From positions 33,198 to 97,197 of IMG/VR virus record IMGVR_UViG_3300026484_000394: 64,000 nt of DNA; one strand, given 5' to 3'. The translations under genes and the position numbers were made by a program. Of this stretch, positions 39,420 to 62,783 are shown in pieces (the first letter of the stretch is position 1; each line of letters begins with the position of its first letter). The notes under the pieces are model-generated. The model saw only the letters and a list, made by a program, of their open reading frames with translations. It ran no database searches and had not been told where the DNA came from. This stretch comes from a virus.

Positions 39420-40136
39420 ATGACTAAAATGATTTTTGATATGTCTAGAAAGCTAGAGGATGCACTAGATGGCGTTACAGGAGAAAATGCCATATACCTA
39501 TTGTCAAGTAACAGAAAGAATCTTCCTGCCATCTCTTTTAAAGCTGCCCTTATATTCTTTGGAGAGGACTTCTTCACTTTAGAAAATGAGACCGTACAGT
39601 TGGCTCTGTTGTCCGCAAAAGTACCACCAGAAAAAATAGAGAAAGTGATTGCACTAAAGTCTCTTCTCTCTAATTATGATGAAGCTCTTTCTCAAGCACA
39701 TCCATTTTCTTTGCTCGTAGAAGCTATGAACGATACAGAAACTCACACTTCTCTTTTACAGTTCCAATACTCTGAAAAGATTATCTGGGCACTGGTGTGC
39801 ATAATGGTCTTTGTAGGAGCAGAAAATATACCAACCACTAGAGATGCAACACGATACATAGTTGCCTGTTTAAAATCAGAAGGGTGGACAATGCCACCGT
39901 TAATGTTAGGAACTCAAAAATTCACAGACTACTTTGAATATTTCGATTCCAAAATCTATGAAGACCGAAGATGCTCTGAAAAATTCCTTTTATCCTTTTG
40001 TGCGAAAGAACATGGTGATGCAATGGAAGATAAAGGGAACTTTTATGAACACCATAAGCCAATTTTACTATACTTACACTCTAAAATAAATCAGACAGTT
40101 GGGGAGCTTGATATAAATGGTATTGAAGACAGATAA
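39420..40136 (+). CDS. hypothetical protein directly upstream of terminase
   Basis: 238 aa, overlaps the terminase start. Confidence 0.72.
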   Translation: MTKMIFDMSRKLEDALDGVTGENAIYLLSSNRKNLPAISFKAALIFFGEDFFTLENETVQLALLSAKVPPEKIEKVIALKSLLSNYDEALSQAHPFSLLVEAMNDTETHTSLLQFQYSEKIIWALVCIMVFVGAENIPTTRDATRYIVACLKSEGWTMPPLMLGTQKFTDYFEYFDSKIYEDRRCSEKFLLSFCAKEHGDAMEDKGNFYEHHKPILLYLHSKINQTVGELDINGIEDR

Positions 40137-41712
40137 AAGAATTGCAAAATTCATAGAAGACCGGGTGTATGTAGATAATATGAAATTAGACTTGAAGGCT
40201 TATGCAGCCTTTAAGCTTCCTTACGAACTTAATGAAAACAAGACTATGCTACTAGCTGGAAGACAGGTTGGAAAAACAGTATATCTCGGCACAAAGCTTG
40301 CCGTAAAGTCTCTATTGAAGCATCCGAACAGAGCACTATATGTGGCTCCTCTTGAATCTCACACCAAGTCATTCTCTAAAACAAAATTACAGAATGTTAT
40401 TGACTCTACTCCTGAACTAAAAGCTATTTTTACAGGTAAGGGAACACAGAGCGATGTATTCTTTAAGAAAAACATCTTGGGCGATTTTATTGAACTTACT
40501 TATGCATCTATGGGAGCAGAAGATCCAGTTCGTGTTCGTGGAAAGTCTGCGGATGATTTGTATATTGATGAAGCACAAGATGTTGATTATGATGTCCTTC
40601 CTGCGATAGAAGAGGTTACCACTTCTGCAAAGGCTCCAGTTATTACTTATGCAGGAACAGCTAAGAGCAAAGACAATACAACAGGTGTTATTTGGGACAA
40701 TTCAAATATGATGGAAAGAATTATCAAATGTACTTATTGTAAGAAATATAATATTATTGATAGAAGAAACATCTCTAAAAAAGGCTTAGTCTGTAACAAG
40801 ACAAATTGTCGTAAACCTTTGTACGTAGAGCATGGTGTTTGGGCTCAAACAGGTAGTGCAGATGCAATATACAAAGCTTTCCGTATTCCTCAAGTCGTGC
40901 TTCCGTATCACAACACAGAAGACAAGTGGAAAGAGATTTGGAGTAAGTATATGCAATATACTGAAACAAAATTTAATCAGGAAGTCCTTGGGATTCCAGC
41001 TGGGTCGGCAGACAGATTTCTTACTATTGAAAAATTGAAGAAGAAATGTACAGGTGGAAGAATGAGAGTAACCTGCGACCCCGAGTGGAGAAAGAATTAT
41101 CATGCAATGTTTATGGGTATAGATTGGACTGGTAATGGTGTATTAATGAAGTCTAGAACGGTCGCACTTATCATAGGGCATCGTAAAGATGGAGTGTTTG
41201 AAATGGTATGGGGTAAAATTTTCCCTCCTGGTGGGGTTAATGAGCAACCCAAAGAGTTGATTAATATGGCTCAATTGTTCCAATGTCAGATGGTAGGTGC
41301 GGATGCAGGAATGGGGATGATTCAAAATAAAGACATTATGGATGCTTTGGGAACAAACAGGTTTAAATCTATTCAGTATGTCGGTACTGCTGGGAACCCA
41401 TTCAAATTTCTCCCTGAGAATAACACAATTAATTTGCATAAAACGAAAGCTATTGATACTATTATGGGTATCTTCGTGGATAAATTTATGCCAAGAGTCT
41501 TAACTAAAGGGAGAACTCTTAATTTTATCTTCCCTGACTTTGATGATTGCCGCAATTTTTTAGAAGACATTCTTGCTGAACATGAAGAAGAAACAAGATC
41601 TGGGAATAAGATTTGGACACACGACCCAATGAAGCCAGATGACACACTACATGCTATTGTTTTCGCTATGTATGCCTATATGCATTACAAGCAAGCAGTA
41701 TCTTTCTATTAG
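40117..41712 (+). CDS. terL: terminase large subunit (lambda gpA-like, with Cys cluster)
   Basis: Walker A AGRQVGKT, VRGKSAD, Walker B LYIDEAQD, motif C YAGT, CTYC...CNKTNC, nuclease GIDW and DDTLHA. Confidence 0.92.
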   Translation: MVLKTDKRIAKFIEDRVYVDNMKLDLKAYAAFKLPYELNENKTMLLAGRQVGKTVYLGTKLAVKSLLKHPNRALYVAPLESHTKSFSKTKLQNVIDSTPELKAIFTGKGTQSDVFFKKNILGDFIELTYASMGAEDPVRVRGKSADDLYIDEAQDVDYDVLPAIEEVTTSAKAPVITYAGTAKSKDNTTGVIWDNSNMMERIIKCTYCKKYNIIDRRNISKKGLVCNKTNCRKPLYVEHGVWAQTGSADAIYKAFRIPQVVLPYHNTEDKWKEIWSKYMQYTETKFNQEVLGIPAGSADRFLTIEKLKKKCTGGRMRVTCDPEWRKNYHAMFMGIDWTGNGVLMKSRTVALIIGHRKDGVFEMVWGKIFPPGGVNEQPKELINMAQLFQCQMVGADAGMGMIQNKDIMDALGTNRFKSIQYVGTAGNPFKFLPENNTINLHKTKAIDTIMGIFVDKFMPRVLTKGRTLNFIFPDFDDCRNFLEDILAEHEEETRSGNKIWTHDPMKPDDTLHAIVFAMYAYMHYKQAVSFY

Positions 41713-44940: not shown

Positions 44941-45201
44941 ATGGCTGAAGTAATGATTGACTATAACGAAGTCAAAGAACACAGTTTCTCTCCGTTTTTC
45001 GGAGCAGGAACTGCAAAAATGGTAGACGATATATATCGTAACGAGGGCTCAAAAATTACAGCTACAGGCCTTGTAGACGATATGGATACTATTTCAAACG
45101 CTAATGAAGGTACAAGAGCTGTAATTAGTGCACAAGTGAGTGGTATCGCAGGGTATCACAGATTCCAAGGGCAAGTACAACAAGTACAATTGCCTCTATA
45201 A
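44941..45201 (+). CDS. small hypothetical protein
   Basis: 86 aa, AAGGAG RBS. Confidence 0.7.
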   Translation: MAEVMIDYNEVKEHSFSPFFGAGTAKMVDDIYRNEGSKITATGLVDDMDTISNANEGTRAVISAQVSGIAGYHRFQGQVQQVQLPL

Positions 45202-45220
45202 ATATAGGAGGGACTTTATT

Positions 45221-45526
45221 ATGGCATTAGTACCTACATCAAAGCCTTCTGTAGATTCAGAGGGTTTACTTAAAGGTCTAGGAGTAAAAGTGAATGGGTC
45301 TGTGCAAGCAATGCACAAAAATGAACCTATTTTCGGAATAGGAAATCAGAATTTGCAAGGATATGTAGCCCTTAAAATGTATGAGCAACACACTGCCGAT
45401 GTAATAGATCAATCTGTTGCTGACAGTGGAGAGCGTGTACTTCAAGAAGGGCAATCATATAGCTCAGGCAAGCCGTATATCACACACAATAAAGTGTGGA
45501 TAGATGACATAGTAAGAGCCACTTAA
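45221..45526 (+). CDS. small hypothetical protein
   Basis: AGGAGG RBS before ATG 45221 (track start 45140 is too long). Confidence 0.68.
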   Translation: MALVPTSKPSVDSEGLLKGLGVKVNGSVQAMHKNEPIFGIGNQNLQGYVALKMYEQHTADVIDQSVADSGERVLQEGQSYSSGKPYITHNKVWIDDIVRAT

Positions 45527-46134
45527 TGATTCGAGAGCATCAAAGTACAATAGACTACTTTAGGAGGGTGTATTCCAATGACATCCCTCCTGCTCAATTG
45601 GACTACAAATTATTCAAATACTCGCAAGAAGCTGCAAAGTCTTTTGACCCCAAGAAAAATGCATCATTTAAAACTCACCTATCTAATCACTTAGCTAAGC
45701 TAAAGAGAGATGTACATTCTTCTGGTTCAACAATCAAGACTGGAGAAGAAGTTGGTTACAGTATCCACCGAATTAAGAGAGCCAAAGATGAGTTTTACAT
45801 GGTACATGGCAGAGAACCTGAAAATGCAGAAATTGCAAAAGCTGTCAACCTGTCTGAGAAGATAGTGGGGAAGTATGACCGAATGTCGTCTATAAAAGCT
45901 GTTCGTTCAGACACAGCAGATAGGGGTTCTATGTCTGTAAAAATGAATGAACTGCTCCCTAACCTAAACAAAACGGACAAAGCTATAGTAAGAACGATTA
46001 CTGGTGATATGGGAGTGTCTGAGGCTTTGAAGCACACTGGATTAAGCAAGTCTTCATTCTATAGAAAAAGGGACTTATTATCTTCTGATATGAAAGAGTC
46101 ATATCTTAGAATGAGAGAAAAGAATACACAATGA
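45526..46134 (+). CDS. phage sigma70-family sigma factor
   Basis: Region 2 EAAKSFDPKKNASFKTHL, region 3 HGREPENAEIAKAVNLSEKIV, region-4-like HTH VSEALKHTGLSKSSFYRKR. Confidence 0.82.
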   Translation: MIREHQSTIDYFRRVYSNDIPPAQLDYKLFKYSQEAAKSFDPKKNASFKTHLSNHLAKLKRDVHSSGSTIKTGEEVGYSIHRIKRAKDEFYMVHGREPENAEIAKAVNLSEKIVGKYDRMSSIKAVRSDTADRGSMSVKMNELLPNLNKTDKAIVRTITGDMGVSEALKHTGLSKSSFYRKRDLLSSDMKESYLRMREKNTQ

Positions 46135-46589
46135 CAGCGAAAGTTTCGACATTAGTTAGTACGATATTTGTGCCTAAGCAACTCGACTCGTACTCGGTTC
46201 AGGAGATAAATGATATGTTTGAAAGCATAGAGAAATCTTTCAACTACATATTGAATAAAATACGAGAACAAGGATTTTATATGGACGACATGAAACTGAA
46301 AAGAGTTAGTAGCATCGTAGATATGGCTACTGTATCGAATGAAAATATTGATAGCATTAATGAATACATATCTTCTATGAATAATGCTCTTGCTGGAGAC
46401 TACTTCTTATCTAAAGAAATTTTAGAAGTCTCTCAAATTTCATTAAGGAATGAAACTTTTTCAGCTTCAGTAAGTGTGCAGCCAAAAGTAGTTTCTGTAG
46501 CACTCTCTTCTGGAGAAGTTGTTACTGTCGGTACTACTGGAGTTGTTATTCAAAATGGAACAGATAGCAAGGAGATTTTGTATGATTAG
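46131..46589 (+). CDS. hypothetical protein
   Basis: 152 aa, ATGA-coupled to the sigma gene. Confidence 0.68.
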   Translation: MTAKVSTLVSTIFVPKQLDSYSVQEINDMFESIEKSFNYILNKIREQGFYMDDMKLKRVSSIVDMATVSNENIDSINEYISSMNNALAGDYFLSKEILEVSQISLRNETFSASVSVQPKVVSVALSSGEVVTVGTTGVVIQNGTDSKEILYD

Positions 46590-47373
46590 AGTCTCTGTAA
46601 CTGATGGCACTTCAACCTCTTTCCGATTCGTGCTTAATTCTGACATTGATTTTGACCAGGCTGATTTGTATCTGACTACAGAGGGCGAGCAGATGCATGT
46701 AGATTCTGTTACTGAAGCAGGCTCTCTCGGACTATATCAAATCCTATTTATCAACCCTGAGACAGGTGTTTTTTCGGTTAATCTAAATGAAGTTCAGTTT
46801 GAGACTATTTATTACAAAGATTTTAAAGTAGTCTTTCTGAAAGACAATGAGACTATTGATGAAACAGTTTCTTTTCAAGTTACACCAATTGGTGCAGAAC
46901 CACTATATGGTGTAGTAAACAAACTAAGATTTGATTTTGAAAAACTAGCAACTCTTTCTGGAGTTCAGATTAGAGTATTTTTACCAAATCTTCTTTCTCA
47001 AAAATGTCCCGATTGTTGGGACGAAGAACTAGGTCAAGCGATCTCTTCATCATGTAATTCTTGTGGAGGAGATTCTGTATTAGAAAAATATCGACCACTA
47101 GATATAATCGCTAGAAAAATCAAAACACAAGCGAAGCAACAATATGATACTGCAGGGATTGATGAGAGAGAAAGTGTTATATTTAATACTTATGCTAGGG
47201 CAGACTTTATTAAAGGTATTATCGTGGCTGATTTGACCTCTAAACAGTTCTATGAGATAGCAGAACGAACTGTTGCCAATATCGGAGGCATTCGCACTTC
47301 TACTACACTTGTAGTTGCTCTGATTAAGTCAAGTGATTCCAGAGTAAAGAAGCTTATTCCACTTTTATACTAG
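46582..47373 (+). CDS. putative neck/head-closure protein with Cys4 zinc motif
   Basis: KCPDCWDEELGQAISSSCNSCGG; AAGGAG RBS before ATG 46582. Confidence 0.5.
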   Translation: MIRVSVTDGTSTSFRFVLNSDIDFDQADLYLTTEGEQMHVDSVTEAGSLGLYQILFINPETGVFSVNLNEVQFETIYYKDFKVVFLKDNETIDETVSFQVTPIGAEPLYGVVNKLRFDFEKLATLSGVQIRVFLPNLLSQKCPDCWDEELGQAISSSCNSCGGDSVLEKYRPLDIIARKIKTQAKQQYDTAGIDERESVIFNTYARADFIKGIIVADLTSKQFYEIAERTVANIGGIRTSTTLVVALIKSSDSRVKKLIPLLY

Positions 47374-47374
47374 A

Positions 47375-47785
47375 CTACTCTTGTAACCTAGCTTTTGGAA
47401 TAAGGCTACCCAGTCCATACTCTTGTATATATTTCTTCTTTTTTAATCCAGCTTTTTCTGTTTTCCATCTATGTTTTTGATTATCACTGCTAGTAACCCA
47501 CTCTAGGTTTGATTTACGGTGGTCACTTCTATCTGAGTTTTTATGATTCACTATTGGTAACCCTTCAGGATTATCTATAAAATGTGTTGCAGTTAAGCGA
47601 TGTATCTTTCTTTCAAACTTTCTACCATCTTTCATTAAGGTAACCTTTGGATACCCCATCCAGTTTCGACCACGAAGAGGTACCCCAGTTGCCTTAGAAC
47701 GGATGCCTTTGTTTGGATGTATCTCATATCTAGGGAAGTCATCTACCTCAACCCATCCACGAACACTAGCTCTTTCTATTGCCAT
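47375..47785 (-). CDS. free-standing HNH (NUMOD4-type) homing endonuclease
   Basis: WVEVDDFPRYEI, GYPKVTL, IHRLTATHFIDNPEGLPIVNHKNSDRSDHRKSNLEWVTSSDNQKH. Confidence 0.88.
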   Translation of the reverse strand: MAIERASVRGWVEVDDFPRYEIHPNKGIRSKATGVPLRGRNWMGYPKVTLMKDGRKFERKIHRLTATHFIDNPEGLPIVNHKNSDRSDHRKSNLEWVTSSDNQKHRWKTEKAGLKKKKYIQEYGLGSLIPKARLQE

Positions 47786-50700
47786 TTTTTTTCCTTGTTG
47801 TATCATAGAAACCGATAAATGGGTCTAGATCTATTCCCATCATCAAGTTATTTTTTTTAGCTGAATTCATCAGTTGCTTTGAGGCCATTATCTTAGTCTT
47901 CACATCCTGAATTGCTTTATGTCCAAAAGGAACATGAATACCAAGTTGGTCACCATCGTAATCGGCATTTTGACCGTCCTCAATTACTGCAGGAATATGC
48001 ATAACATTTCCTGAAGTCCTCGAAGCATAATGTCCCGTCATATTGTGTTTATGCAGAGAGGGTGCTCTATTTATTACAACAGGGATCTCTCTCATTGCAC
48101 TATCTAAAACTCGAGTAGCAGACTCATTTCTATTTTCTATCATCTTTTTTGATTCGTTTACTGGAATCCCCATTTGGGACATCTTTCTCACTACGTGAGG
48201 TTCATACATTGACCAAGCGACATTGTTTGGAAGTTCTATTTGGTCTATGCCCATGTTTTTTGTATGAGGGGCAATAACAGCTCTTCCTGAGCCAAACACT
48301 TTGTTTTTTAGTATTCTTTGATGCCAGAAAGATGTCTTTGGATTTTCTCCTGCCACAATATCCATAACACTCTTCAGTTCTTTTTTTTGACTCTTCTTGT
48401 TGGGAGATAGGTTTGTTCCATACATAGCACCTATATGCTCTTGCAGTTCTTTGTGTAACCCATTTACTATTTGAGCAGGAGCTTTAGCTTTTTTTGCCTC
48501 TTCAAGAGTATTTACAGAGTGTATGATGTTAGCATAATGCTCATTTACATCATGCTCAACTAAACTGCCGTTCGGAAGCTTTGTTGGGGGACGCATACTT
48601 GTAGGAAGAACAGGTATTTTTGATATAAACATTGTTTCTGATGGGCTTTGCTTTAAGCTATCTAGCTTCTTGATTGCTTTGATTGCTTTGATTGCTCTGT
48701 CTGCTTTTCCTACATCAGACGTATGTTTCACTTCTGATCGCAACTCTGCCAGCCTCTCGGTTGTATTAAGCTTACCTATCTTGTGGTACACTCCACTAAT
48801 TCCCTCGTGGTGAATATCTTTATCTAGTTCTGCTTCTGTCTTACCCAAGAGGCTTGCCACTGTCTTCTTGTAGAAAGGGTTAATTACTTTTTGCTTTAAA
48901 TCTATGTGTCCGTATTGACTTCCGTGTCCTCCAAAAATACGAGTATCGTAAAATCCTTTGTTTACGGGTTCCATTGTGTTTCTCTTCATCCCGTAAGGTT
49001 GGCTCACTCTCCCTATTGAAACTCTGGTTACATCCTTATCTGTCATTGGAATGGTATGAAGATGGTTGCCATCTGCATGAACTTTAATATTCATTTGCCC
49101 TAGAAGGCCATGAAATTTCTCTCTAGCAGATTTGGGCTCGGGAGGAGGAGGGATGTGCCCAGCCTCAAAAGCATTAAACCAATCCTTGTTTTCTTGAGAC
49201 TTCACACTTCCGACTTCTCTAAGAAAGTCTCTGGCGTTATGAGCAAGAAGAGCATTTATTTCCATGTTGGAAATTGAAGATGCAGATATCTTGCCACCTT
49301 TTTTTGGTTGTTTCATCCCATCTACTGGACCATGACCAATAGCCGAATAAGTGCCTTCCCCTTGCTTGAATAGCTTCAGGGTATTGTAATGTGCTACAAA
49401 CACTTTATCTTTGAGATGCTTCTTTCTTACTGGGTCGTATACCTTATGATATAGCTGCACACCATTTTTGTCTGCCTCTTGTTGAGCAAACTCAGATAAA
49501 TCATCGTTCGTATAATGAGGAAGTGAATATTTCTTTCCTGTCTTGTGTGCTACTTCTGTCAATGCTGCTTCGCTAATTTGAGCAGGATTTTGTCTTGAAG
49601 TTACCCCTGCTCCACCAAAAACTATATCCAGAGGTTTGCCTGTTTCATCAGTAGGCATCTCATGCATAGGTAATACACCTGAAATGATTCCCTTGTTCCC
49701 ACTTCGTCCAGCGACCTTATCTCCCTTTTTGAGTGGAGATTTATAGGTGGCTGTAATATGATAATTGTTGCCTCTCTTTTCTCTTGTTCTGATTACACCC
49801 GTCTCTTGTGTTTTCCACTTTGACATCTCAGGAGCATATCCACCATAAAGCAGTTTTTTTACCTTATCATTTTCAAAACGAACTTCACTAGGGTCCATTT
49901 TCCTAAATCCAAGAGTAATAGGCTCATCTTTACTAGCGGCTTCCCCTTCATTCATGATTCCGTGTGCATCATACTTGGACATATCAATTTTCTTAGCTAT
50001 CTCCGGAAACAGAGAAGCGAACTTCTGCTTGCTGTATTCCGTTCCAGTAGAGGCATCCGTTTTGAATCTAACACCATGTAGTGATGTCATCTTCTTAGCA
50101 GCATCTTCAGATACAATAAATGCATCATTCCTTGTTCCTGGAAACATCATCCAAGCAGCTCGAAGGTTTTTACCTAAAGCAAGCTCACCATCCTTGGTGA
50201 AATTTGAATCCACCAGAGCTTGACCTTTTTTTATCTTATCTCCAGCTTTTACTATTGGATAATGATCTATATATGTTTTTGTATTAAGTCTTAGTTTATC
50301 TTTTGCATAGTCTTGAGTTTGCTTAGTTCCGGCACTATCAGTATAATGAATTAGTCCATTCTTCTCATCTACTTTTGTCACTGTTCCGGAAGTATCAGCT
50401 GTCACTAAGTGGTGTTTAGCTAATTCTGCCGACATATTTCCATTCTTGCCCTGAAGCCGAACAGGATTGACATCTCTTTTTGCAAGAGGGAGGGCTTGAA
50501 GCACATGTTTTGAAGCCATCAGGCTTCTAGTAGGGTCGTTTGAGCTAATCATCCCTAGTGAGTTCATTGCAGGGCCATACATGTCTTCTGCATGAATCAG
50601 CTGATAGTCGGCACTTTTCAATCTTCCAACTTGAATATCATTCTTGTGTCTTATTCCCACACTTCCCTTGTGGTCATCAGGAAAGGCAATTTTCTTGTCC

Positions 50701-52007
50701 CAAAGATCCCCGACTGTCTTAACGGTTTCCTTCCCCGTCTTTACATCTCTCACCATTAAAGCAGGATTTCCAAATTTATCTATGTGGGCTCCGTGAGTTA
50801 GACTGAGAGTAATTCCCGTATTCGCCCCTTCAGGAGATTTGATAGGGTCGATAAATCCTAATTGAGATGAATGTAGAGAGCGAACTGACGGAGTAATCAT
50901 TTCTGACGACGAGATGCCGCCTTCTCCAACAGGAGTAATTTCCATATTTCCTTGCGTAGTCTGCAATGGATTGTATTCTTCAGGCATTCTTGATATAGCT
51001 GCCGTAGTCATAAAGCCTTTAGCTGCTTTTTCTAAAGTAGGCTCTTTCAGAGCATCGAACACCTGCACCTTAAATGGATTATTTAGGGCACCTTTCATCT
51101 TCATTTCAGATTTTTTAAGTTCAGTGTTAACTCCCTCTGCCAGAAGCTTTTGAGGAGTCATTATTTTCTTGAACATTAAGTTCTCTTTATCATCCTCTTC
51201 AGCCCCTTTTTTTACAGCCACATTTCGAGCAATACCGAGCAAGATAGTTTTCTTGTTCACTGTATTCAAAGGAGTACCCAAAGTGTGCTTTGTCACAGAG
51301 GGATCAAGTTTTGTTTGAGAGAAGTATTCTTGAATATGTTTTTCTACCTCTGACTGAGGAGGAGTGACATCTTTTCCTATTAGACCAAGTGTGTTGGCCA
51401 GCTTCAGAGAAGTTGCACGAACATTAGACTTAGAAGATAAGTGATTGAACAGTTGGTCTCCCAGAATGCCCTTAGATTCTTTCTCTGAAGCACCCAAGAT
51501 AGTTGCAATATCCACGGCATTGAACTGCTTCCCTCCAAGAATCACATTGACATCATTCTTGCCAGTAGGAGAAACTATTTTCATACCTCTTCCATTCTCT
51601 GCATTCATCATAGTCTCAACATCACCGTTGGCTTTATTTTGAGTGTAGGCTCCAGACTTAAGCCTAATCTGGTGTGGAAGATTGTAAGTATTTCCCTGAA
51701 TAAGAAAGCCACCTTTCCTAGTATATACAGGCACAGTTCCTAGAGATACTTTTCTCTCTTTAGAAATCACTTTCTTGCTCTTATTATCTATTACAGCTAC
51801 ATCTGCTAAATACTTCTGAGAAAGGGTTCCTCCCGAATCTATAAGTTTACTTAGTCTCTTGTATGTGTGATTTACGGGAAGTGTTCTAACATTGGAATAT
51901 TTAAGAGTCTTATATTTTCCTACAACTTCTCGTCCTTCATAGACAGATGTTATTTCGTCCTGAATTCTCTTGTTTGCCTCTTTTGTTCCTGTCTGTAATT
52001 TTTGCAT
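47766..52007 (-). CDS. DNA-directed RNA polymerase: beta fused to the N-terminal half of beta'
   Basis: beta motifs GGFLIQGNTY, SPEGANTG, NDPTRSLMAS, GELALGKN, GDKVAGRSGNKG, SNMEINAL; then beta' motifs RIFGG, YGHIDL, IPVLPTSMRP, GSGRAVI, NRAPSLH, NADYDGDQ; AGGGG RBS favours ATG 52007. Confidence 0.95.
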   Translation of the reverse strand: MQKLQTGTKEANKRIQDEITSVYEGREVVGKYKTLKYSNVRTLPVNHTYKRLSKLIDSGGTLSQKYLADVAVIDNKSKKVISKERKVSLGTVPVYTRKGGFLIQGNTYNLPHQIRLKSGAYTQNKANGDVETMMNAENGRGMKIVSPTGKNDVNVILGGKQFNAVDIATILGASEKESKGILGDQLFNHLSSKSNVRATSLKLANTLGLIGKDVTPPQSEVEKHIQEYFSQTKLDPSVTKHTLGTPLNTVNKKTILLGIARNVAVKKGAEEDDKENLMFKKIMTPQKLLAEGVNTELKKSEMKMKGALNNPFKVQVFDALKEPTLEKAAKGFMTTAAISRMPEEYNPLQTTQGNMEITPVGEGGISSSEMITPSVRSLHSSQLGFIDPIKSPEGANTGITLSLTHGAHIDKFGNPALMVRDVKTGKETVKTVGDLWDKKIAFPDDHKGSVGIRHKNDIQVGRLKSADYQLIHAEDMYGPAMNSLGMISSNDPTRSLMASKHVLQALPLAKRDVNPVRLQGKNGNMSAELAKHHLVTADTSGTVTKVDEKNGLIHYTDSAGTKQTQDYAKDKLRLNTKTYIDHYPIVKAGDKIKKGQALVDSNFTKDGELALGKNLRAAWMMFPGTRNDAFIVSEDAAKKMTSLHGVRFKTDASTGTEYSKQKFASLFPEIAKKIDMSKYDAHGIMNEGEAASKDEPITLGFRKMDPSEVRFENDKVKKLLYGGYAPEMSKWKTQETGVIRTREKRGNNYHITATYKSPLKKGDKVAGRSGNKGIISGVLPMHEMPTDETGKPLDIVFGGAGVTSRQNPAQISEAALTEVAHKTGKKYSLPHYTNDDLSEFAQQEADKNGVQLYHKVYDPVRKKHLKDKVFVAHYNTLKLFKQGEGTYSAIGHGPVDGMKQPKKGGKISASSISNMEINALLAHNARDFLREVGSVKSQENKDWFNAFEAGHIPPPPEPKSAREKFHGLLGQMNIKVHADGNHLHTIPMTDKDVTRVSIGRVSQPYGMKRNTMEPVNKGFYDTRIFGGHGSQYGHIDLKQKVINPFYKKTVASLLGKTEAELDKDIHHEGISGVYHKIGKLNTTERLAELRSEVKHTSDVGKADRAIKAIKAIKKLDSLKQSPSETMFISKIPVLPTSMRPPTKLPNGSLVEHDVNEHYANIIHSVNTLEEAKKAKAPAQIVNGLHKELQEHIGAMYGTNLSPNKKSQKKELKSVMDIVAGENPKTSFWHQRILKNKVFGSGRAVIAPHTKNMGIDQIELPNNVAWSMYEPHVVRKMSQMGIPVNESKKMIENRNESATRVLDSAMREIPVVINRAPSLHKHNMTGHYASRTSGNVMHIPAVIEDGQNADYDGDQLGIHVPFGHKAIQDVKTKIMASKQLMNSAKKNNLMMGIDLDPFIGFYDTTRKKNGNRKS

Positions 52008-52011
52008 CTGA

Positions 52012-52566
52012 CTATCCCCTTGTAGTAGTTTGAGTTTGGACACCACTCGTAGTGGTAACTGAATATCCGGTGTATGGTGGCTTCGGTGTTATCACACTAT
52101 CTTCTGACTCCACTAGGAGCTCTTCTTCACTAGAAGATCTCCCAATAGCGTCTGCGTAATCTTTGGTTTCATTCATTTCATATTTCACAGCTACAATTGC
52201 TTTTACTACAGGAGAAGAGGTCGGATGTGATATTGTTCTTGTTCTTACTTTAGAACCTGATCTATGAAAAGAGTTAACTTTAACATTATCTATCATATTT
52301 ACGACATCTACATCAGGCGGAATGAAGCTTGGAGCATGAGAGATAGCTTCTGAGTGCTCCACAAAGAACTTAGTCATACCAGACAGCTGAGTGCTTGACA
52401 TTCCAGTAATAACTCCATTCTCCTGTGGCACAAAACCACCCCTTTCGTCAACAACAGTTATACGACTCTCTATCCACCCAAAATTAAGCCGATGAATTTC
52501 AAAAGACATATCCATTCTCTCGGCAGAAATTGGATCAACATTGACTGTTTCTCTAATTACGGCCAT
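52012..52566 (-). CDS. hypothetical protein
   Basis: 184 aa between adaptor and RNAP, coupled to both. Confidence 0.7.
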   Translation of the reverse strand: MAVIRETVNVDPISAERMDMSFEIHRLNFGWIESRITVVDERGGFVPQENGVITGMSSTQLSGMTKFFVEHSEAISHAPSFIPPDVDVVNMIDNVKVNSFHRSGSKVRTRTISHPTSSPVVKAIVAVKYEMNETKDYADAIGRSSSEEELLVESEDSVITPKPPYTGYSVTTTSGVQTQTTTRG

Positions 52567-53002
52567 TTACATATCCAAACTCATACTCTGCAGAGGCCAT
52601 AGGCACTGTTCCCCAAGCATCACAATAAAATGACCGAGCACATTCAGTTGAAGAAAATCGTTCCATCTTGCTTTGATATGCCGCAGCTATAGCGAAATAC
52701 TTATCTGCTTTGTTTGAGTAGTCAATTTGACCTACGTTATCATCACCAATACTCATTTGATTTCTATTTTCTTGATGAGCAACGGCTTCCATTAGCTTTG
52801 AAATTATCCCTGGTAGCAATACTATTTCGGGAATGGTTTTAATCCTTCCTTTCAGAGCTGGATAGAGAAAGCACAGCTCTTCTCTAATATCTCTATCGAA
52901 CATTTCTATCTCTTCATCATCAAACTGCTCCTTGTTATTTAGGAGCACATTTAATTCATTGCGGTCTCGTATATAAGCCCGCACTTTCTCAGGATCAATC
53001 AT
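52553..53002 (-). CDS. putative head-tail adaptor/neck protein
   Basis: 149 aa helical; VRAYIRD...EQFDDEEI...NQMSIGD...DYSNKADKY resembles head-completion adaptors. Confidence 0.55.
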   Translation of the reverse strand: MIDPEKVRAYIRDRNELNVLLNNKEQFDDEEIEMFDRDIREELCFLYPALKGRIKTIPEIVLLPGIISKLMEAVAHQENRNQMSIGDDNVGQIDYSNKADKYFAIAAAYQSKMERFSSTECARSFYCDAWGTVPMASAEYEFGYVNGRN

Positions 53003-53007
53003 TTAAC

Positions 53008-53523
53008 TTACCTATGCTTTTTTTGTTTTAGATAGCTCACAACACAAGTGGCATCTGCATAATCTTCGTCCCCAATAACTTCTATGCTTTTTCCTAGTGA
53101 AGTACAATGCACCTCATCAATGCCAGCTTCGCCCATATCTACATTGCAAGTACCTCCAATAATTCCACCTAAAGGCTCAAACATGAGAGTTCCCTTGTTG
53201 TCCACAATGTCTACTGTATCATTGTATATTTCGCAGTTCGTTACGATTTTTGGTGTAGAATCTTTAGGCTCCGTAAGTAGATATTCCGTGGTGTCCATAT
53301 TATACTTATCTCTACATGGCTCTGCATACACTCTAAGCAAACTCATGTCTCTTGCGTCAAAAAGATCTGCAAAAAAATAATCAATGTAATTGCCATTTTT
53401 GTCTTTGTTTTTATCTGCTTCTTGAAAACGGTCTAGGAAGTTGCGGGTAAAGGAAATAGCTCCTGCTTTAGAAATATTGGAATTTCCTCTAACTAGAACC
53501 TCTTTTTTGTATAATGAACTCAT
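53008..53523 (-). CDS. hypothetical protein
   Basis: 171 aa, AGGAG RBS, first gene after a promoter. Confidence 0.72.
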   Translation of the reverse strand: MSSLYKKEVLVRGNSNISKAGAISFTRNFLDRFQEADKNKDKNGNYIDYFFADLFDARDMSLLRVYAEPCRDKYNMDTTEYLLTEPKDSTPKIVTNCEIYNDTVDIVDNKGTLMFEPLGGIIGGTCNVDMGEAGIDEVHCTSLGKSIEVIGDEDYADATCVVSYLKQKKHR

Positions 53524-53553
53524 ATCTTACTCCTGTTTTTTTATTTAGGAGAT

Positions 53554-53582
53554 ATTGTATCATCTTTTGGATATATTCTCAA
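53554..53582 (-). promoter_or_regulatory. sigma70-type promoter for the operon ending in RNAP-HNH
   Basis: Minus strand TTGAGA-17 nt-TACAAT with extended -10 TGa. Confidence 0.7.
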
Positions 53583-53610
53583 TAGAAGCCTCTCCGGAGA
53601 GAGGACTCTA
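53583..53610 (-). terminator. stem-loop after the fibre-like gene (no U-tract)
   Basis: Minus strand TAGAGTCCTCTC-TCCG-GAGAGGCTTCTA. Confidence 0.45.
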
Positions 53611-53630
53611 TGAAGATAGACCCAAAGGGA

Positions 53631-54641
53631 CTATGCTACAGCTCCGTCACCGTCACCAGCATCATTTGAAAGACCAAGACCTTTTCTAAAAGAAGTAATA
53701 ATTCTACTTTTATCCATGCTTGAAGCTTTTAATGTATGAGCATCTGTATACTCTTTAGCAGCAGCTAATGTATCAATAATGCTTGTAGCAGTTGCTTTAG
53801 CATTTTGAGCAATTGTAGTTGCATTAGAAGTAACTTTACTGATTAGACCTGGTACAAGTTCAGAATCTTCATTAGTAGTATCATTTAAGATATTTTCAGC
53901 AGATTGTACTCTGTCAGAAATAGAACTTAAAGAATCACCTTCACCACCAGTGATTTCTTCTAGTTTTTCTTCAATTCTTGACTCAGCAGCAGCAACTTTT
54001 GCTTCAGTAGAAGTAGTAAGTTCAGTTTTTGCAGCAGTAATTTTTTCATCTGTTGTATTAGCATTTGCTTGTTCAGCAGTGATTGCACGAAGTTTTTCCT
54101 GATCAACTAAATTAGCAACAGAACCTTCAATATCTTTGCTACCATTTAATTTAGTAACAGTTGCTTCAGTAGTAACTAATCTATCGTTAATAGCACCAAC
54201 AGTAGTTTTAGCAGCTTCTTTGTTATCAGCAACAGCTTTAACTAAAGCAACAATGTCAGCATTGTTAGAGTCAGTAGCATTTTTGTTGTCATTGATTTTA
54301 CCAAGTAAAGCAGCTTCAACATTAGTGGCACGAGTATTTTCATCTACGATATCTTTTTTGTTAGCAGCAATTTTGTCTAAGAAGTCAGCAACAATACCAT
54401 CTTCATTTGAAACAGCAGATTTAACATCTCTAACCATCTCAGCAAGAGACACAGAGTCATTGCTATCATCTAGTTCAGTAATTGCAGTTAATTGAGTTTG
54501 AAGTTCATTTACAGCAGTTAGTAATTCTGTTTTTGTAGAAAAACCTTTGCCCTCAACGTATTCAACTGTACTTTTACCTTGTTCTTCAACAAGATCAACT
54601 AAGATTTGTTCTAATTCTTCTGTAGTTACATTATCAGCCAT
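53631..54641 (-). CDS. coiled-coil fibre/whisker-like virion protein, probably highly expressed
   Basis: 336 aa Ala/Thr/Asn/Glu-rich heptads; DENTRATNVEAAL and DQEKLRAITAEQAN (E-x2-RA-x2-E fibre-type motif); strong A/T third-position bias. Confidence 0.6.
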   Translation of the reverse strand: MADNVTTEELEQILVDLVEEQGKSTVEYVEGKGFSTKTELLTAVNELQTQLTAITELDDSNDSVSLAEMVRDVKSAVSNEDGIVADFLDKIAANKKDIVDENTRATNVEAALLGKINDNKNATDSNNADIVALVKAVADNKEAAKTTVGAINDRLVTTEATVTKLNGSKDIEGSVANLVDQEKLRAITAEQANANTTDEKITAAKTELTTSTEAKVAAAESRIEEKLEEITGGEGDSLSSISDRVQSAENILNDTTNEDSELVPGLISKVTSNATTIAQNAKATATSIIDTLAAAKEYTDAHTLKASSMDKSRIITSFRKGLGLSNDAGDGDGAVA

Positions 54642-54794
54642 GGATAATCCTTTTAACTTAATATTTTTTGAGCTAGGCTCAGTGGAGTCCTCTTTAAAAA
54701 AAGGAACTCTGAGAAACTACTCTCTTCACCAGAAGTGAGAGTATAGTAGTTTCAAGCTGAATGATAGCTTGAAATTTACTGCTTTTTTATTATA
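54642..54794 (-). promoter_or_regulatory. promoter -10 box plus structured ~140-nt 5' leader
   Basis: TATAAT at 54789-54794 (minus); stems at 54745-54780, 54713-54753 and 54678-54713. Confidence 0.5.
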
Positions 54795-54801
54795 ACTGCT
54801 T

Positions 54802-55003
54802 CGGCCATCAATAGCCCTAGTCTAGCATATTAAAAAAACTAAATAGCTGAAATCCCAATCGTCTAAACTTGTTTAGTGGTTGGGCAGTTCACCTTTAGCA
54901 AAATTAAACAATAATATCTGAACTTGAAATAGCAAGAATGAGTGAAGATGAAGCAAGAATAACTTTTGAAAAACTAAGACGGAGTGGTACAGAATGCATA
55001 TGA
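54802..55003 (+). pseudogene. possible relic of an IS1595-family transposase 5' end
   Basis: 54908-55003 reads TIISELEIARMSEDEARITFEKLRRSGTECI*, resembling the IS1595 N-terminal pattern TLS-x4-RMSDEEA-x3-F-x2-IRW; CGG in place of TGG; flanked by stops. Confidence 0.4.
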
Positions 55004-55020
55004 AACGTAAGATTTATTGT

Positions 55021-55050
55021 TATTACTCCCTCTCCTGGAGAGGGGTAATA
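55021..55050 (-). terminator. stem-loop directly after stop codon (no U-tract)
   Basis: TATTACTCCCTCTC-CTG-GAGAGGGGTAATA inverted repeat with one bulge. Confidence 0.5.
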
Positions 55051-55053
55051 CTA

Positions 55054-56313
55054 TTATTCTTCTTCGGTTTTTTGAGAAATTAATTTTACTGCTGAACCTT
55101 CCCAGATAATATCAAACTTATTACAAGCAATTCTGAACTCTAGAAATCTAAAGTCTTTTGGTACTGCTTTGTATTTAATTATAAGTCTATCTAGCTGAGG
55201 GTCTCTGCTATTTACATCAAAGAAGCTAGTAATATTAAAACTATCTTCTTCCAATTCATTAAATGTAATACCTAAATCCTCTTCTTTTACAGCTGTGCTC
55301 ACAGTCATATGGTTTCCAAATTTAGAATATGCAACTGTAGGAGTTGAAGTAAGCCCATTCGCAGAGATATCAAACATTACAATCTCATCGTCTTCTCTAG
55401 AAATCATTTTTGGGTAATCTACATCAGGGTTAAAAGTACCTCGATAACCTTCCATCTGAGCACAAATAAATTCATCGCCAGGTGCAATTGTTGTGTATGA
55501 ACTGTATACAAGTGATCCTTGTGCAACTTCCTCTTTCCCGATATATACAATTACCTCTGTATGAGATACCCATTGCAGCGTAAGAACAAACCAATCTTCA
55601 GGAACTTCACACTCAAACTTCTCTCCATAAATAAATACACCACCGTCCCCAATCTCTACATAGCTTTTAAATATATTGCTTACATTCCCAGCACCATAAA
55701 TTCTTGTTCTCTTTGAAGTGTCAGCCAGTTTAACATGCATTGAAACAAAAGCATCTCCCTCTACATTCGATGTTCTAACTTGTTGAACTGCATTGCGTCG
55801 GCTATACCCTATTGCATTTCCATCTTGGTCTTTAAATGGGCTGTCATCTATAACTGTACCTGCAGACACAGTCCGTTCTCGTGAACTAAATGCATGACGA
55901 CGACTATCATAAGACAAAGGCATCCTTACACTATTTGGAACAACTCTGTCTAGAGCATAGCCCGAGATACAAGCTTTATCTTTAAGAGCAGGTTCCTGTC
56001 TCATAATTGTTTTCTCTACAGTTTTTTCACCAAGAACAATTCTTTTTCCATGAGGAAATTCAGGAGAAACAATCATCACTGCGTCACCCTCTTGATAGTC
56101 ATATGCTTTTGCTGATATACCCATTAGAGACAACCTGCTTGCTGTAGTAGGAAGAATGTCTTCCCCTCTCTGTAAGCCAACTCTTCTTAGGCCAATATTA
56201 TGTGAAAGAGCTTCGTACTCTGTAAAATTGGGTTCATCTGCTTTAGCCCCTTTTACCGTGCTATACCACTCAGTGTTATCTTCTGTTGCCATTAAATGTT
56301 TTGTTGTTGCCAT
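55054..56313 (-). CDS. hypothetical protein, possible beta-sandwich (lectin/LamG-like) region
   Basis: 419 aa; DWFVLTLQWVSHTEVIVYIGKEEV resembles LamG-type strands. Confidence 0.6.
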   Translation of the reverse strand: MATTKHLMATEDNTEWYSTVKGAKADEPNFTEYEALSHNIGLRRVGLQRGEDILPTTASRLSLMGISAKAYDYQEGDAVMIVSPEFPHGKRIVLGEKTVEKTIMRQEPALKDKACISGYALDRVVPNSVRMPLSYDSRRHAFSSRERTVSAGTVIDDSPFKDQDGNAIGYSRRNAVQQVRTSNVEGDAFVSMHVKLADTSKRTRIYGAGNVSNIFKSYVEIGDGGVFIYGEKFECEVPEDWFVLTLQWVSHTEVIVYIGKEEVAQGSLVYSSYTTIAPGDEFICAQMEGYRGTFNPDVDYPKMISREDDEIVMFDISANGLTSTPTVAYSKFGNHMTVSTAVKEEDLGITFNELEEDSFNITSFFDVNSRDPQLDRLIIKYKAVPKDFRFLEFRIACNKFDIIWEGSAVKLISQKTEEE

Positions 56314-56325
56314 ATTAAATCCTTC

Positions 56326-57156
56326 TTAAGCAGCTAAGCTTAAATATATTATTTTTTGAAAATTATCAGTTGCTCTATTTTTACCAAAAAGAACTTCGAT
56401 TTGTTCATTTTTGTTCTCTAACGGAGAATAGAACTTTGCAATAAATCCCGTCTCTACCCTATTTCTTCCAAAAAGAACTTCGATTTGTTCATCTTTAGCA
56501 TCAAGAGAAAGGTAAGCTTTTGCTATCATTCCAGGTAAACCAGCATTTATAGATACTAGATACTCTTCTGTCCATTCTGCAGGAAGCTCAAGTGCTTCTA
56601 TAGGAGAACCATCTACTACCCATTCACCGTTGCTTAAATCTACAGGTTGTCCCAGAAAAGAATCTGAAGTCGTAAGAAAGCCGAAATGCTTAAATATTGA
56701 ACCCACAACGAGTCTACTTTCATCAACATTATTGTAGTCAATAATTTTAACCACTGGAAATCTTGTCGGAGCTACTTTAGGAAGAGCTTTATCTGCTAAT
56801 CGTACAGCAATCGTTAAAATCTCTTTATCAGTCAGCCCAGAACCTAGTCTAATTATCAATTCTTGATAGTCAATAATTTGTGCAGGTAGCTTCGCTAGAC
56901 TCACATTGTTAGTAGTCGTATTAAATAACACTCTTGATTGAACACCAAGGCATTCTCTATCTTGTTCACAGACAGAAACAAACACCTCACCTAACCAAGG
57001 AACTAGATAATACAGTTTTGTAACAACAGCCTTGTCTTTAAAAAGACGCTTGTTTTTCTCACTTAGCTCATCCACTCTCTCTAAAGAAAGACGCTCGGCC
57101 TCTTCTTTAGTAATTTTATGAGTGTTGACAAAGGTTTCGATTTTGATTGATATCAT
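56326..57156 (-). CDS. hypothetical protein with duplicated C-terminal 28-aa unit
   Basis: KDEQIEVLFGRNR and KNEQIEVLFGKNR. Confidence 0.72.
   Translation of the reverse strand: MISIKIETFVNTHKITKEEAERLSLERVDELSEKNKRLFKDKAVVTKLYYLVPWLGEVFVSVCEQDRECLGVQSRVLFNTTTNNVSLAKLPAQIIDYQELIIRLGSGLTDKEILTIAVRLADKALPKVAPTRFPVVKIIDYNNVDESRLVVGSIFKHFGFLTTSDSFLGQPVDLSNGEWVVDGSPIEALELPAEWTEEYLVSINAGLPGMIAKAYLSLDAKDEQIEVLFGRNRVETGFIAKFYSPLENKNEQIEVLFGKNRATDNFQKIIYLSLAA
56384..56492. repeat. 25-bp exact direct repeat, 84-bp period
   Basis: CCAAAAAGAACTTCGATTTGTTCAT at 56384-56408 and 56468-56492. Confidence 0.9.
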
Positions 57157-60453: not shown

Positions 60454-60969
60454 TTACTTATCTCGAGAAGAAGGTGTGTTCCCCGATTCCATAGAATTCA
60501 CATCTTCCAAAAAGCTTGCGCTATTTACAAAATGCGCACCTTCAAAAAAGTTTTCACTATCTATAACTAGTTTATATTTCACACTAACTTGTATGTTCGT
60601 ATTGATATAAGCACGAAGTTGGGATCTGTGTATACGTATAGCTGCTGGTATCCCTTTTTTGCACCTACATTTTCTTCTCCTCCAATAACTGTTAAGCATG
60701 CAATCTCGGTCAGAAATAATTATTATGTAAATAGCGGCTTCTGAATTGGAATGGAAGAGTTCATGCTTCTTGCATTTCTGAGGGGAATAACGATAATAAT
60801 ACCAACCACCGTGATAAAAGCAACGATGTATAAAAGGAGTATAAGGACAAGGAAAAGCAGCCTCAAGCTCTTCTAACTTACTTTTAGGGAACATTAGATG
60901 TCTCCCCGGAAATCCTACTTTGTTATAAGCAGGATTTACATGCCATATCTTTGGTGCTACTGGTTTCAT
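60454..60969 (-). CDS. hypothetical basic Cys/Tyr-rich protein
   Basis: 171 aa exactly filling the gap between portal (TAATG coupling) and MTase. Confidence 0.6.
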   Translation of the reverse strand: MKPVAPKIWHVNPAYNKVGFPGRHLMFPKSKLEELEAAFPCPYTPFIHRCFYHGGWYYYRYSPQKCKKHELFHSNSEAAIYIIIISDRDCMLNSYWRRRKCRCKKGIPAAIRIHRSQLRAYINTNIQVSVKYKLVIDSENFFEGAHFVNSASFLEDVNSMESGNTPSSRDK

Positions 60970-62783
60970 TATTGTTGTCCTTGCTGTTGAGCCTGTTGTG
61001 CTGCTTGAGTAGCATCTTTCCTGCCATTAAATTCCATGCGTTCTTTAGTGGCAACATATAGTAGCCAGTTCTCTTTTTGTAGTCTATCCATCTCTGACTT
61101 GCGTTGACCAGCTTCCATCTGAGATAATTGTTGAGCCATTTGATCAGCTTCCTGCATAATAGCTTGTTGATTAACTTGCTGAGTAGAGCTTTGTGAAAGC
61201 ATTGCTTCCGTTTTCGCTTTCTCTTCAAGATTTTGAGAAAGATTTGTTGTAAATTCTTGTATCTCAATTTGTCTCTTAGCATTCTCTTTCGCCTCTGCTG
61301 TCATTCTTGTTTGTTCTGAAGTGGCGTTCATAGTGAAGTAAGCACCCATTGTATGGTCAGATATTTTACCTGATTGAAATAACTGCAGAAGAATTTGCTT
61401 CTCAGAGATATCATCTACTATTCTAAATGGTGTTATTTTAATAGGTATTGCTTTTTTCTTTCTCATCACAGCTACTTTCTTGACAGTAAAGTTAGCAATC
61501 TTTTCCATTGAGGTAGTTAAATTCATTAACTGATTCTCTAGTACCCTGATAGATGCTCCAGCTGCATTGTACCCAAGGCCACCTTTTACAAATTCTACGG
61601 GAACACCGATACTATTCATAGCCATCACTGACACTTCGTCAATCTCTTTTGCTAGGTTAAGTGTCTTCCCTTCTCCAAATGCAGTCATCGTGTCAAGAGG
61701 AATAGGAAAATATTTAATTGAGGTTGGATCATTCTTATGTTGTGTAAGTAGAGTCTCAACTCTCTTGTTTACATCAGAACCTGACATATAGTTATACATA
61801 GGGTTCCCATCTGCCCCTGAAGTTCTTGGAACTAAACCTCTGAAAGGAAAAATCATATCACTAAGAATTTTTTCTTGGCTCTTTCTGAGCAGCAACAGAG
61901 AGATCATCTCTGGAATAGCTGAAGTAAGAATAGGCATTCCCCATCCTGAGTTAACTCCAATCATTTTTTTTCTTCTTAAGTGCAGTATCTTATCATTATC
62001 AAAGAAGACCATCGTATTCTCAACTGCTGACTGAATTAAGTCAATCGGCTGTGAAAACAACATACTTAAGAATCCATCTGTGATCATCTTTCTCTTGCTG
62101 TTTGGCATCTTGTAATAGAATGAACTTTTCCCTGTAATATCGTCAGTTATAATATTCATATTTTGCCCTGGCCAATTCACTACATTTATCCCAGAGATAT
62201 CATTTACTGGTATGTCTGCATGAGTAAAAATTGTATCTGCACTACAGTCAGGACAAACACCTTTAAATACAAGAGTTTTCTTTCTAGTTTTCTTTTTCCC
62301 TTTCCCAGTTGAAATTTCTTCCATAGATGGTTTAAGTTTACTATTATCATTAAATTGTCTCTCGTGAAGTATCTTTTGGCACGAAAGGCAAGTCATAGTT
62401 CTCTTGATTGGAGTGTATACAGACACGAAAAGATTTCCATACAATAAATAAGTGAAAGCAAGCTCTTTCAAGATATCTTTCATATCTAGCTCATCTTCTA
62501 ATATTGACTTCCATGACTTCTCATCACTTGGACTTACCTCCGATAGATCATCAGTAACATATTGAAATGTTGTAATTGATACAGATGACATTTTTTCTAA
62601 TGCACTGGCCACAACTGGGACATTAGCATTAATAAACTCTGACCATTGGAAAATCTCTTTAATATCATTAGGTAATATGTCTGCGTAGACACTACTTAAA
62701 TTATTATATCTCCCCATAAACTTTCTGTTATACATTTTTCCATTAAAAGTGTTCATATTATTTTGTAGCCTCTTTATATTCAA
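60969..62783 (-). CDS. probable portal protein with Zn-ribbon insertion
   Basis: 604 aa; YLLYGNLFVS, ILHLRR...GWGMPIL, IGVPVEFVKGG portal-like motifs; CLSC...CPDC; Gln-rich C-terminus. Confidence 0.72.
   Translation of the reverse strand: MNIKRLQNNMNTFNGKMYNRKFMGRYNNLSSVYADILPNDIKEIFQWSEFINANVPVVASALEKMSSVSITTFQYVTDDLSEVSPSDEKSWKSILEDELDMKDILKELAFTYLLYGNLFVSVYTPIKRTMTCLSCQKILHERQFNDNSKLKPSMEEISTGKGKKKTRKKTLVFKGVCPDCSADTIFTHADIPVNDISGINVVNWPGQNMNIITDDITGKSSFYYKMPNSKRKMITDGFLSMLFSQPIDLIQSAVENTMVFFDNDKILHLRRKKMIGVNSGWGMPILTSAIPEMISLLLLRKSQEKILSDMIFPFRGLVPRTSGADGNPMYNYMSGSDVNKRVETLLTQHKNDPTSIKYFPIPLDTMTAFGEGKTLNLAKEIDEVSVMAMNSIGVPVEFVKGGLGYNAAGASIRVLENQLMNLTTSMEKIANFTVKKVAVMRKKKAIPIKITPFRIVDDISEKQILLQLFQSGKISDHTMGAYFTMNATSEQTRMTAEAKENAKRQIEIQEFTTNLSQNLEEKAKTEAMLSQSSTQQVNQQAIMQEADQMAQQLSQMEAGQRKSEMDRLQKENWLLYVATKERMEFNGRKDATQAAQQAQQQGQQ

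Follow-up and report, generated by a model that had tools for sequence, protein, structure and literature searches.

The stretch of DNA analyzed here (the window) is 64,000 nucleotides long and forms the 3' end of a linear IMG/VR contig of 97,197 bp (record IMGVR_UViG_3300026484_000394; C1:33198-97197) that derives from an uncultured hydrothermal-vent phage and is 52% complete by the CheckV estimate. Its minus strand carries, at 47766..52007, a gene for a 1413-residue protein in which a compact β subunit of a cellular-type RNA polymerase (RNAP) is fused to the N-terminal part of β' (β'N). The open reading frame (ORF) as listed, 47766..52046, opens at GTG; the ATG at 52007 is the likelier start, since it follows a Shine-Dalgarno sequence (AAGGGGA, 7 nt upstream), lies 4 nt past the preceding ORF and gives the length of the gene call in the public database (P0002). 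Four Pfam domains match the chain in the order Rpb2_3 (residues 356-422, numbered from the GTG), Rpb2_6 (551-917; 109 bits), Rpb1_1 (1113-1233) and Rpb1_2 (1298-1383; 53.8 bits), each above its curated cut-off.

Numbered from the ATG, the chain consists of a compact complete β (residues 1-976), a linker, HADGN (residues 977-981; 49065-49079), and β'N (residues 983-1413). Motif mapping and an AlphaFold model place the junction at 49061..49118, with the β C-terminal motif at 49080-49118 (residues 964-976) and the first residue of β' at 49061. The lysine motif of the β double-psi barrel, GDKVAGRSGNKG, lies at 49689..49724 (residues 762-773) and contains the two conserved lysines (GDK...GNKG) that are diagnostic of a cellular-type multisubunit RNAP core. 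G762, D763, K764, G770, K772 and G773 are invariant among 26 aligned proteins (alignment A1) that are 27-64% identical. The catalytic Mg-binding motif of the β' barrel, NADYDGD, lies at 47949..47969 (residues 1347-1353); D1349, D1351, G1352 and D1353 are invariant in the family alignment, and the Asp triad characteristic of an RNAP core is thus present as well. Sixty residues separate this motif from the stop codon at 47766-47768. About 30 relatives (48-64% identity) terminate at the same aligned place (...IDLDPFIGFYDATKK..), and the stop at 47766 is therefore taken to be genuine. All of these features lie on the minus strand. The original prediction, made from the letters of the window, had read the locus in just this way, as a single ORF of ~1413 residues with β motifs followed by β' motifs, a junction near 49060, and a chain ending ~60 residues after NADYDGD at 47949-47969; every coordinate that it gave is correct.

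The remainder of β' is not encoded in the window. The same prediction saw no ORF there that could account for the funnel, bridge helix and trigger loop, and postulated a separate C-terminal chain of β' (β'C) encoded elsewhere, the whole being divided into β-β'N and β'C. Rpb1_5 indeed has no match in the window, and a search of the entire contig with this profile returns one match only, C1:15510-16286(+), which falls in a gene for a 581-residue protein on the plus strand (C1:15018-16763). This gene lies outside the window: 18 kb separate it from the window's first position, and the fusion gene, on the opposite strand, is 65 kb distant. Its product, β'C, aligns to bacterial β' over residues ~600-1260, a stretch that takes in the bridge helix and trigger loop; on enterobacterial RpoC (E. 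coli-type numbering) the alignment covers 702-936 and 1201-1261. The second zinc site of β' is retained (C213, C264, C271 and C274, each conserved in at least 90% of a 22-row alignment), and the trigger-loop residues Q304 and H311 are invariant in the same 22 sequences. The AlphaFold model of β'C (predicted local distance difference test, pLDDT, 81.7) superimposes on the C-terminal halves of β' in solved bacterial RNAPs with template modelling (TM) scores of 0.62-0.70, and contains a 36-residue bridge-type helix (residues 168-203) together with two trigger helices (290-309 and 325-333). A separate chain thus provides both the bridge helix and the trigger loop of the RNAP core.

The two chains fit together on relatives in which β and the whole of β' form one polypeptide. 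On a 2021-residue ORF (L035), residues 28-1411 of the fusion chain align to 40-1426 and residues 5-554 of β'C to 1426-1986; on a second single-chain relative (L038), residue 1409 of the fusion chain aligns to 1435 and residue 6 of β'C to 1438. Since the chains abut on these ~2020-residue proteins with neither gap nor overlap, nothing has been lost between them, and the postulated division into β-β'N and β'C is confirmed by this collinearity. Together the chains comprise 1994 residues (1413 + 581), as against ~2020 in the single-chain β-β'. Judged by motifs, the fusion chain ends at about residue 515-520 of E. coli β' and β'C starts at about 573; the intervening stretch is variable or absent in the family. 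Residues 116-222 of β'C align to 117-223 of a cyanobacterial RpoC2 chain (8h3v_B), and the cut is therefore close to that between rpoC1 and rpoC2.

A model of fusion-chain residues 542-1413, generated by AlphaFold from a 24-sequence alignment (pLDDT 83.1, predicted TM score 0.71), matches the β chains of solved RNAPs over about 500 columns and β' or cyanobacterial γ chains over about 470-520 columns. It places a helical hairpin at the position of the σ-binding clamp coiled-coil. The N-terminal zinc ribbon (Cys4) of β' is absent from the fusion chain, which has a short GHGSQY stretch instead; the entire 1413-residue chain, like those of the 11 split-form relatives checked, contains no cysteine. 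With β reduced to 976 residues and β' to 431 + 581, the enzyme is minimised, as had been proposed. The high lysine content that had been remarked on also holds and extends to the second chain: both chains are strongly basic (isoelectric point, pI, 9.6; 10-11% Lys) in comparison with the rest of the genome (median pI 5.0, 6.6% Lys); the Salmonella β and β' subunits, for comparison, have pI 5.1 and 6.4.

A search for α (PF01000) covering this contig and five related genomes, of which three are complete, gives no match, while its positive controls score in 14 of 14 cases. Three complete relatives, which measure 177-198 kb and of which one has terminal repeats, each contain exactly one Rpb2_6 locus, as do the cultured phages Arash and D181; these genomes therefore do not encode a second enzyme in the manner of phiKZ. 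A candidate initiation factor is encoded close by: a small σ70-like protein of 202 residues (45526..46134, plus strand), whose gene is separated by 1.6 kb from the RNAP gene's end. It matches Sigma70_r3 (30.4 bits against a cut-off of 25.3) and has, in addition, a weak C-terminal helix-turn-helix. It is homologous to Arash gp10, which is annotated as a σ factor (E 4e-9, 28% identity), and counterparts, which also match Sigma70_r3, are conserved in each of the five related genomes searched. A genome search with Sigma70_r2 missed the gene in this clade, and it was found by scanning ORF by ORF; the protein is unrelated to a 300-residue ORF of another genome (G004) that does bear r2. These similarities suggest that the σ-like protein is probably the initiation factor of this RNAP and confers its promoter specificity. 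The window shows no enrichment of the extended -10 pattern TGNTATAAT (2 found, 4.1 expected).

Queries with single proteins brought up no related loci, and an alignment-based pattern scan of IMG/VR was needed; it confirms at least 447 relatives, and the locus-level counts given here and below cover 80 of these loci. A word-indexed database search yields 368 family proteins in size classes of 1403-1433 residues (48-64% identity), 1439-1500 residues (28-36%) and ~1980-2090 residues (27-29%), the last also carrying Rpb1_3, Rpb1_4 and Rpb1_5; some members contain inteins or GNAT inserts. Among the 80 loci two forms occur, with either 61-99 residues (rarely up to 170) or 650-750 residues after the Mg motif. 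The two-chain form, as it is found here, combines a β-β'N chain ending 60-100 residues past the Mg motif with a β'C of ~580-620 residues, and on sequence grounds this layout is common to hundreds of other phages. A β'C profile run against 1.84 billion representatives gives 3523 matches at E ≤ 1e-30, cellular β' included; the best 150 of these, all below E 1e-162, include stand-alone proteins of ~600 residues, C-terminal parts of ~2000-2090-residue chains, and intein-bearing and GNAT-fused forms. (Among the variants of β'C are a C-terminal fusion to a GNAT acetyltransferase, P0178, of 1096 residues, and P0199, P0315 and P0233, several of which carry LAGLIDADG/Hint inteins, some near the trigger loop. 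Two proteins of ~1000-1300 residues, P0194 and P0227, have β'N and β'C without β and may be fragments at contig edges; P0227 lacks an initial Met and P0194 begins 40 residues inside β.)

The cultured members are Salmonella phage Arash and Vibrio phages D69, D148 and D181. Arash (OQ632216; PMC10585845) has the same layout: gp206 is a 1525-residue β-β'N ending 94 residues after AADYDGD, gp216 a 606-residue β'C and gp10 a σ-like protein of ~230 residues, in a single RNAP set with the RNAP gene beside that of the portal. Gp206 is 28% identical to the fusion chain over 92% of the query and gp216 29% identical to β'C (E 3e-62). The Arash paper labels the two proteins β and β', and mentions neither the fusion nor the cut (PMC10585845). 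Phages D181 and D148 differ from the phage analyzed here in having an additional cut, made in β by a homing endonuclease. In D181 (L100, 7803-13317) the free-standing endonuclease VPHD181_0266 separates pieces of 514 and 1006 residues; the gene of its sister phage D69 is uncut.

Trees of the shared region were constructed with FastTree (78 rows) and IQ-TREE in its 'quick' mode (42 rows), with Salmonella rpoB and the N-terminal part of rpoC as outgroup. In both, all split forms, Arash included, lie on one side of one starred branch (support 100 in FastTree; 99 in IQ-TREE by the Shimodaira-Hasegawa-like approximate likelihood ratio test), with the phage of the window inside the split clade, and either tree requires just one change between full and split forms. 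A single origin of the split follows. The base of the tree is a polytomy of three single-chain clades and the split clade, which makes fission of a single chain the simpler reading, and the change was rather probably from an ancestral single chain to two, not a fusion of two into one. (Rhizobium phage RHph_Y65 was considered as a nearer outgroup and dropped: it has a whole β' of 1127 residues but no Rpb2_6 match.) In most split loci β'C lies 0.6-6 kb downstream of the fusion gene on the same strand; in a starred sub-clade comprising this window and three related loci (L007, L008 and L010) it is 36-65 kb away. β'C has thus moved away from the fusion gene in the sub-clade that holds this phage; in Arash it is 5 kb downstream, as against 65 kb and the other strand here. 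What lies between the two genes varies: LigD-type primase-polymerase with 3'-phosphoesterase, ligase with phosphoesterase and GNAT, or a LAGLIDADG endonuclease (examples are L040:12168-13664, L025:12282-13871, L028:13764-15659 and L057:13302-13850), along with small ORFs. Small ORFs in this gap of related phages share AYxLG and PFKSxAQRRKFYA motifs.

Each element of this architecture has its counterpart elsewhere. In the rpoB-rpoC fusions of Helicobacter and Wolbachia the C-terminus of β is joined head-to-tail to the N-terminus of β'. Those proteins are full length (about 2900 residues) and the enzymes keep α and ω, whereas the chain described here stops after the β' barrel. In cyanobacteria and plastids β' is likewise cut after the barrel, into RpoC1 (γ) and RpoC2, and the β'N part of the model matches the cyanobacterial γ chains 8gzh_D, 8syi_D and 9dvs_D. 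However, β is a separate subunit in these enzymes, α, ω and the zinc ribbon are present, and the second chain starts tens of residues later than β'C does. The RNAPs of phiKZ/AR9-type jumbo phages share with the present enzyme the absence of α and a cut in β' just after the catalytic barrel; they lack ω, and one of the enzymes is carried in the virion (PMC7598289, PMC7824862). A review equates the cyanobacterial cut with the phiKZ-type cut in β' (PMC7598289). The phiKZ/AR9-type enzymes differ in that β is in two or three pieces and never fused to β', in that two sets are present, and in that no σ is recognisable; here (on the evidence of complete relatives) there is one set, with β intact and fused, and a σ-like partner.

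The mReC phages resemble the phage of the window in being large and tailed, in having compact RNAPs detected by hidden Markov models of cellular β and β', and in a large terminase subunit (TerL) of the Terminase_6N type (PMC7481178). Subunit sizes are similar too (β about 1000-1370 and β' about 900-1050 residues). In the mReC rows consulted, β and β' are always separate proteins, with none fused and none of ~2000 residues (PMC7481178). The T4-type major capsid protein (PF07068), an mReC trait, has no match in the present half-genome. The mReC filter calls for matches of at least 800 residues to both subunits and for NADxDGD in the β' match (PMC7481178). It would drop the 581-residue β'C, and here NADYDGD sits in the β-containing chain instead of in a separate β'. 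The crAss-like gp66, YonO and P23-45 tape-measure RNAPs are two-barrel phage enzymes, and some of them combine the two barrels in a single chain and travel in the virion; they are, however, too diverged to match cellular β/β' models, whereas the present protein matches four of the Pfam domains. Closest are the single-chain β-β' proteins of ~2000-2190 residues of other uncultured phages (L035, L038 and L039; P0084-P0121), which are collinear, similarly compact and share the synteny with the portal; they differ in consisting of one polypeptide, with the Pfam set extended by Rpb1_3, Rpb1_4 and Rpb1_5, and in belonging to clades outside the split clade. A search of the literature found no description of a phage β-β' fusion with the layout described here, nor of the ~2000-residue single-chain forms. 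Phage-encoded multisubunit-type RNAPs are already known; what is new is the combination of a β-β' fusion with a cut after the β' barrel. The 'non-cellular subunit boundary' of the original prediction is correct in part: the β/β' junction taken separately is of the Helicobacter type, and the cut is near the cyanobacterial/plastid and phiKZ-type cuts.

The ORF at 47766..52007 is thus very probably the large chain of a working, compact, bacterial-type RNAP of two chains. In the proposed arrangement, chain 1 (1413 residues) would provide a whole small β, the 5-residue linker, and β'N with the clamp coiled-coil and the Mg-binding barrel; because both double-psi barrels are in this chain, it would hold the entire active centre. 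Chain 2 (581 residues) would add the funnel, bridge helix, trigger loop, second zinc site and C-terminal clamp. Since related phages make a single chain of ~2020 residues, the two chains should assemble like parts of a single protein, and it is highly probable that they would do so and be active. The enzyme would work without an encoded α, with the σ-like protein of 45526-46134 supplying promoter specificity. A more general proposal is offered tentatively, at a little less than even odds: phages of ~160-200 kb would carry in the virion a minimal, α-less, cellular-type RNAP, either as a single chain of ~2000 residues or in two-chain form, together with a σ-like factor of their own, and would inject it to transcribe without the host enzyme, the post-barrel cut having arisen once in this group, independently of the cyanobacterial/plastid and phiKZ-type cuts.

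Several considerations weigh against these conclusions. Assembly and activity are inferred; the contig is about half complete, and this genome itself could possess a second RNAP set; the assignment of the σ-like protein depends on Pfam region r3 and on the 28% identity to Arash gp10; and the root of the tree is a polytomy, so that the change may have been either fission or fusion. The remaining two concern the virion. The Arash preparation listed 116 proteins, among them ribonucleotide reductases and other nucleotide-metabolism enzymes as well as ligases, and its authors allow that abundant proteins of the infection phase could have been carried over (PMC10585845). Moreover, the RNAP gene here is 9 kb away from the portal gene, with mixed genes in between that include a DNA methyltransferase (59461-60453, minus strand; phrog_116, E 9e-95).

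These last two points also favor a different view of when the enzyme acts, in which it is a genuine two-chain RNAP but is made after infection and reads middle or late genes, host RNAP having transcribed the early ones. This is a serious alternative but an unlikely one. In Arash, gp206 is the most detected particle protein (3516 spectra and 128 unique peptides, against 1333 spectra for the major capsid protein); gp216 (1210 spectra) and gp10 (100% coverage in particle mass spectrometry) are strongly represented as well (PMC10585845). A portal homologue lies at 60969..62783 on the minus strand (tblastn with Arash gp204, E 2e-55), upstream of the RNAP gene and on the same strand, and the same order is found in 72 of the 80 related loci. 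The basic character of both chains, unlike the rest of the proteome, and the single RNAP set of complete genomes likewise argue against an enzyme restricted to middle and late transcription. Packaging in the virion is plausible because of the Arash proteomics, the linkage to the portal and the high pI, and the balance of these considerations tips slightly toward an RNAP that is packaged and injected to start transcription independently of host RNAP. The original prediction had set the RNAP gene among neck genes. Directly upstream of it, close-packed on the minus strand (52012..53002), are two small ORFs of 149 and 184 residues, syntenic with L007 and L008 at 28-61% identity; the 149-residue ORF (52553-53002), two places upstream, is head-tail adaptor-like (ESM Atlas score 0.89-0.90, TM 0.64), and this is a lead only. 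Apart from this lead and the portal gene, nothing places the RNAP among neck genes.

A free-standing HNH homing endonuclease gene adjoins the 3' end of the fusion gene (47375..47785, minus strand; HNH_3 match; 136 residues from the ATG at 47785, the ORF call being from 47806). The gene has an AAGGA site of its own and shares 20 nt with the end of the RNAP gene; in D181 a homing endonuclease does split the homologous gene. It might thus be supposed that the ORF is a truncated, decaying or non-functional remnant, cut by the HNH gene or by another rearrangement. That is highly improbable: in L007, L008 and L010 different genes occupy the site, yet without HNH the proteins still terminate at the identical aligned residue, so that the HNH gene did not make the cut; catalytic residues are invariant in the family down to 27% identity; and β'C is present, intact and equally conserved, the two chains together equalling the single-chain relatives. 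The HNH family is common (2239 phage records), no HNH homologue occurs at the locus in any of the 80 related loci, and the gene is, from these comparisons, a recent and incidental insertion.

Equally improbable is an assembly or homopolymer error at the 47766 stop or at the β/β' junction: a run of eight A residues does lie 22 nt before the stop and the comparison is one of contigs, with the pieces from a second sample stopping on either side of the run, but an 80-kb Logan contig from a hydrothermal-vent metagenome (possibly the source sample) is identical over 47000-52200 at a depth of ~43, and both the junction and the C-terminal end are shared by cultured phages and by dozens of independently assembled sequences. 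The second vent sample provides identical pieces of 151-167 nt, one of which (47639-47789) spans the stop. At contig level, no assembly error has turned up at either place. The run itself (~47790-47797) precedes the HNH start, and loss of one A from it, by slippage or sequencing error, would join the RNAP and HNH frames.

Cellular-type RNAPs are thought to need an α-dimer platform, and keep β and β' as two large units. In the family described here the catalytic core appears to work as a chain of ~2000 residues or as two non-canonically cut chains, without α or the β' zinc ribbon, and the family provides a natural experiment in what keeps the two barrels together. With it the lineages in which β' is divided past the barrel number three, a point of relevance to the dispute over how the phiKZ and cyanobacterial cuts originated; its compact, possibly σ-dependent enzyme is open to study in the cultured phage Arash. 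If the general proposal is true, the post-barrel site would be a general permissive seam of the enzyme, no smaller complete cellular-type RNAP would be known, and Arash would serve as its cultured model. Database annotation is also corrected: records name the long chain 'beta' and call the short one either 'beta'' or 'hypothetical', which is why the family escapes filters of the mReC kind.

A few further features deserve mention. At 53554-53604 (minus strand) a perfect hairpin (CCTCTC TCCG GAGAGG) and, after it, a TG-extended -10-like site lie ahead of the run of ORFs that leads from 53523 to the RNAP gene; the two may start the RNAP transcription unit, although a promoter and terminator scan of the surrounding 45000-56500 gives matches at chance level. 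TerL (PF03237 match) is encoded at 40117-41712. PHROGs assigns no family to 18 of 20 neighbouring or large ORFs. A GroEL-like chaperonin gene (5011-6417, plus strand; phrog_5725, E 2.6e-51) heads a block of ~40 kb of large ORFs, mostly lacking a family assignment. A few genes past β'C, a 606-residue protein with RCC1-like repeats is encoded at G000:C1:19623-21443 (L110:10624-12444).

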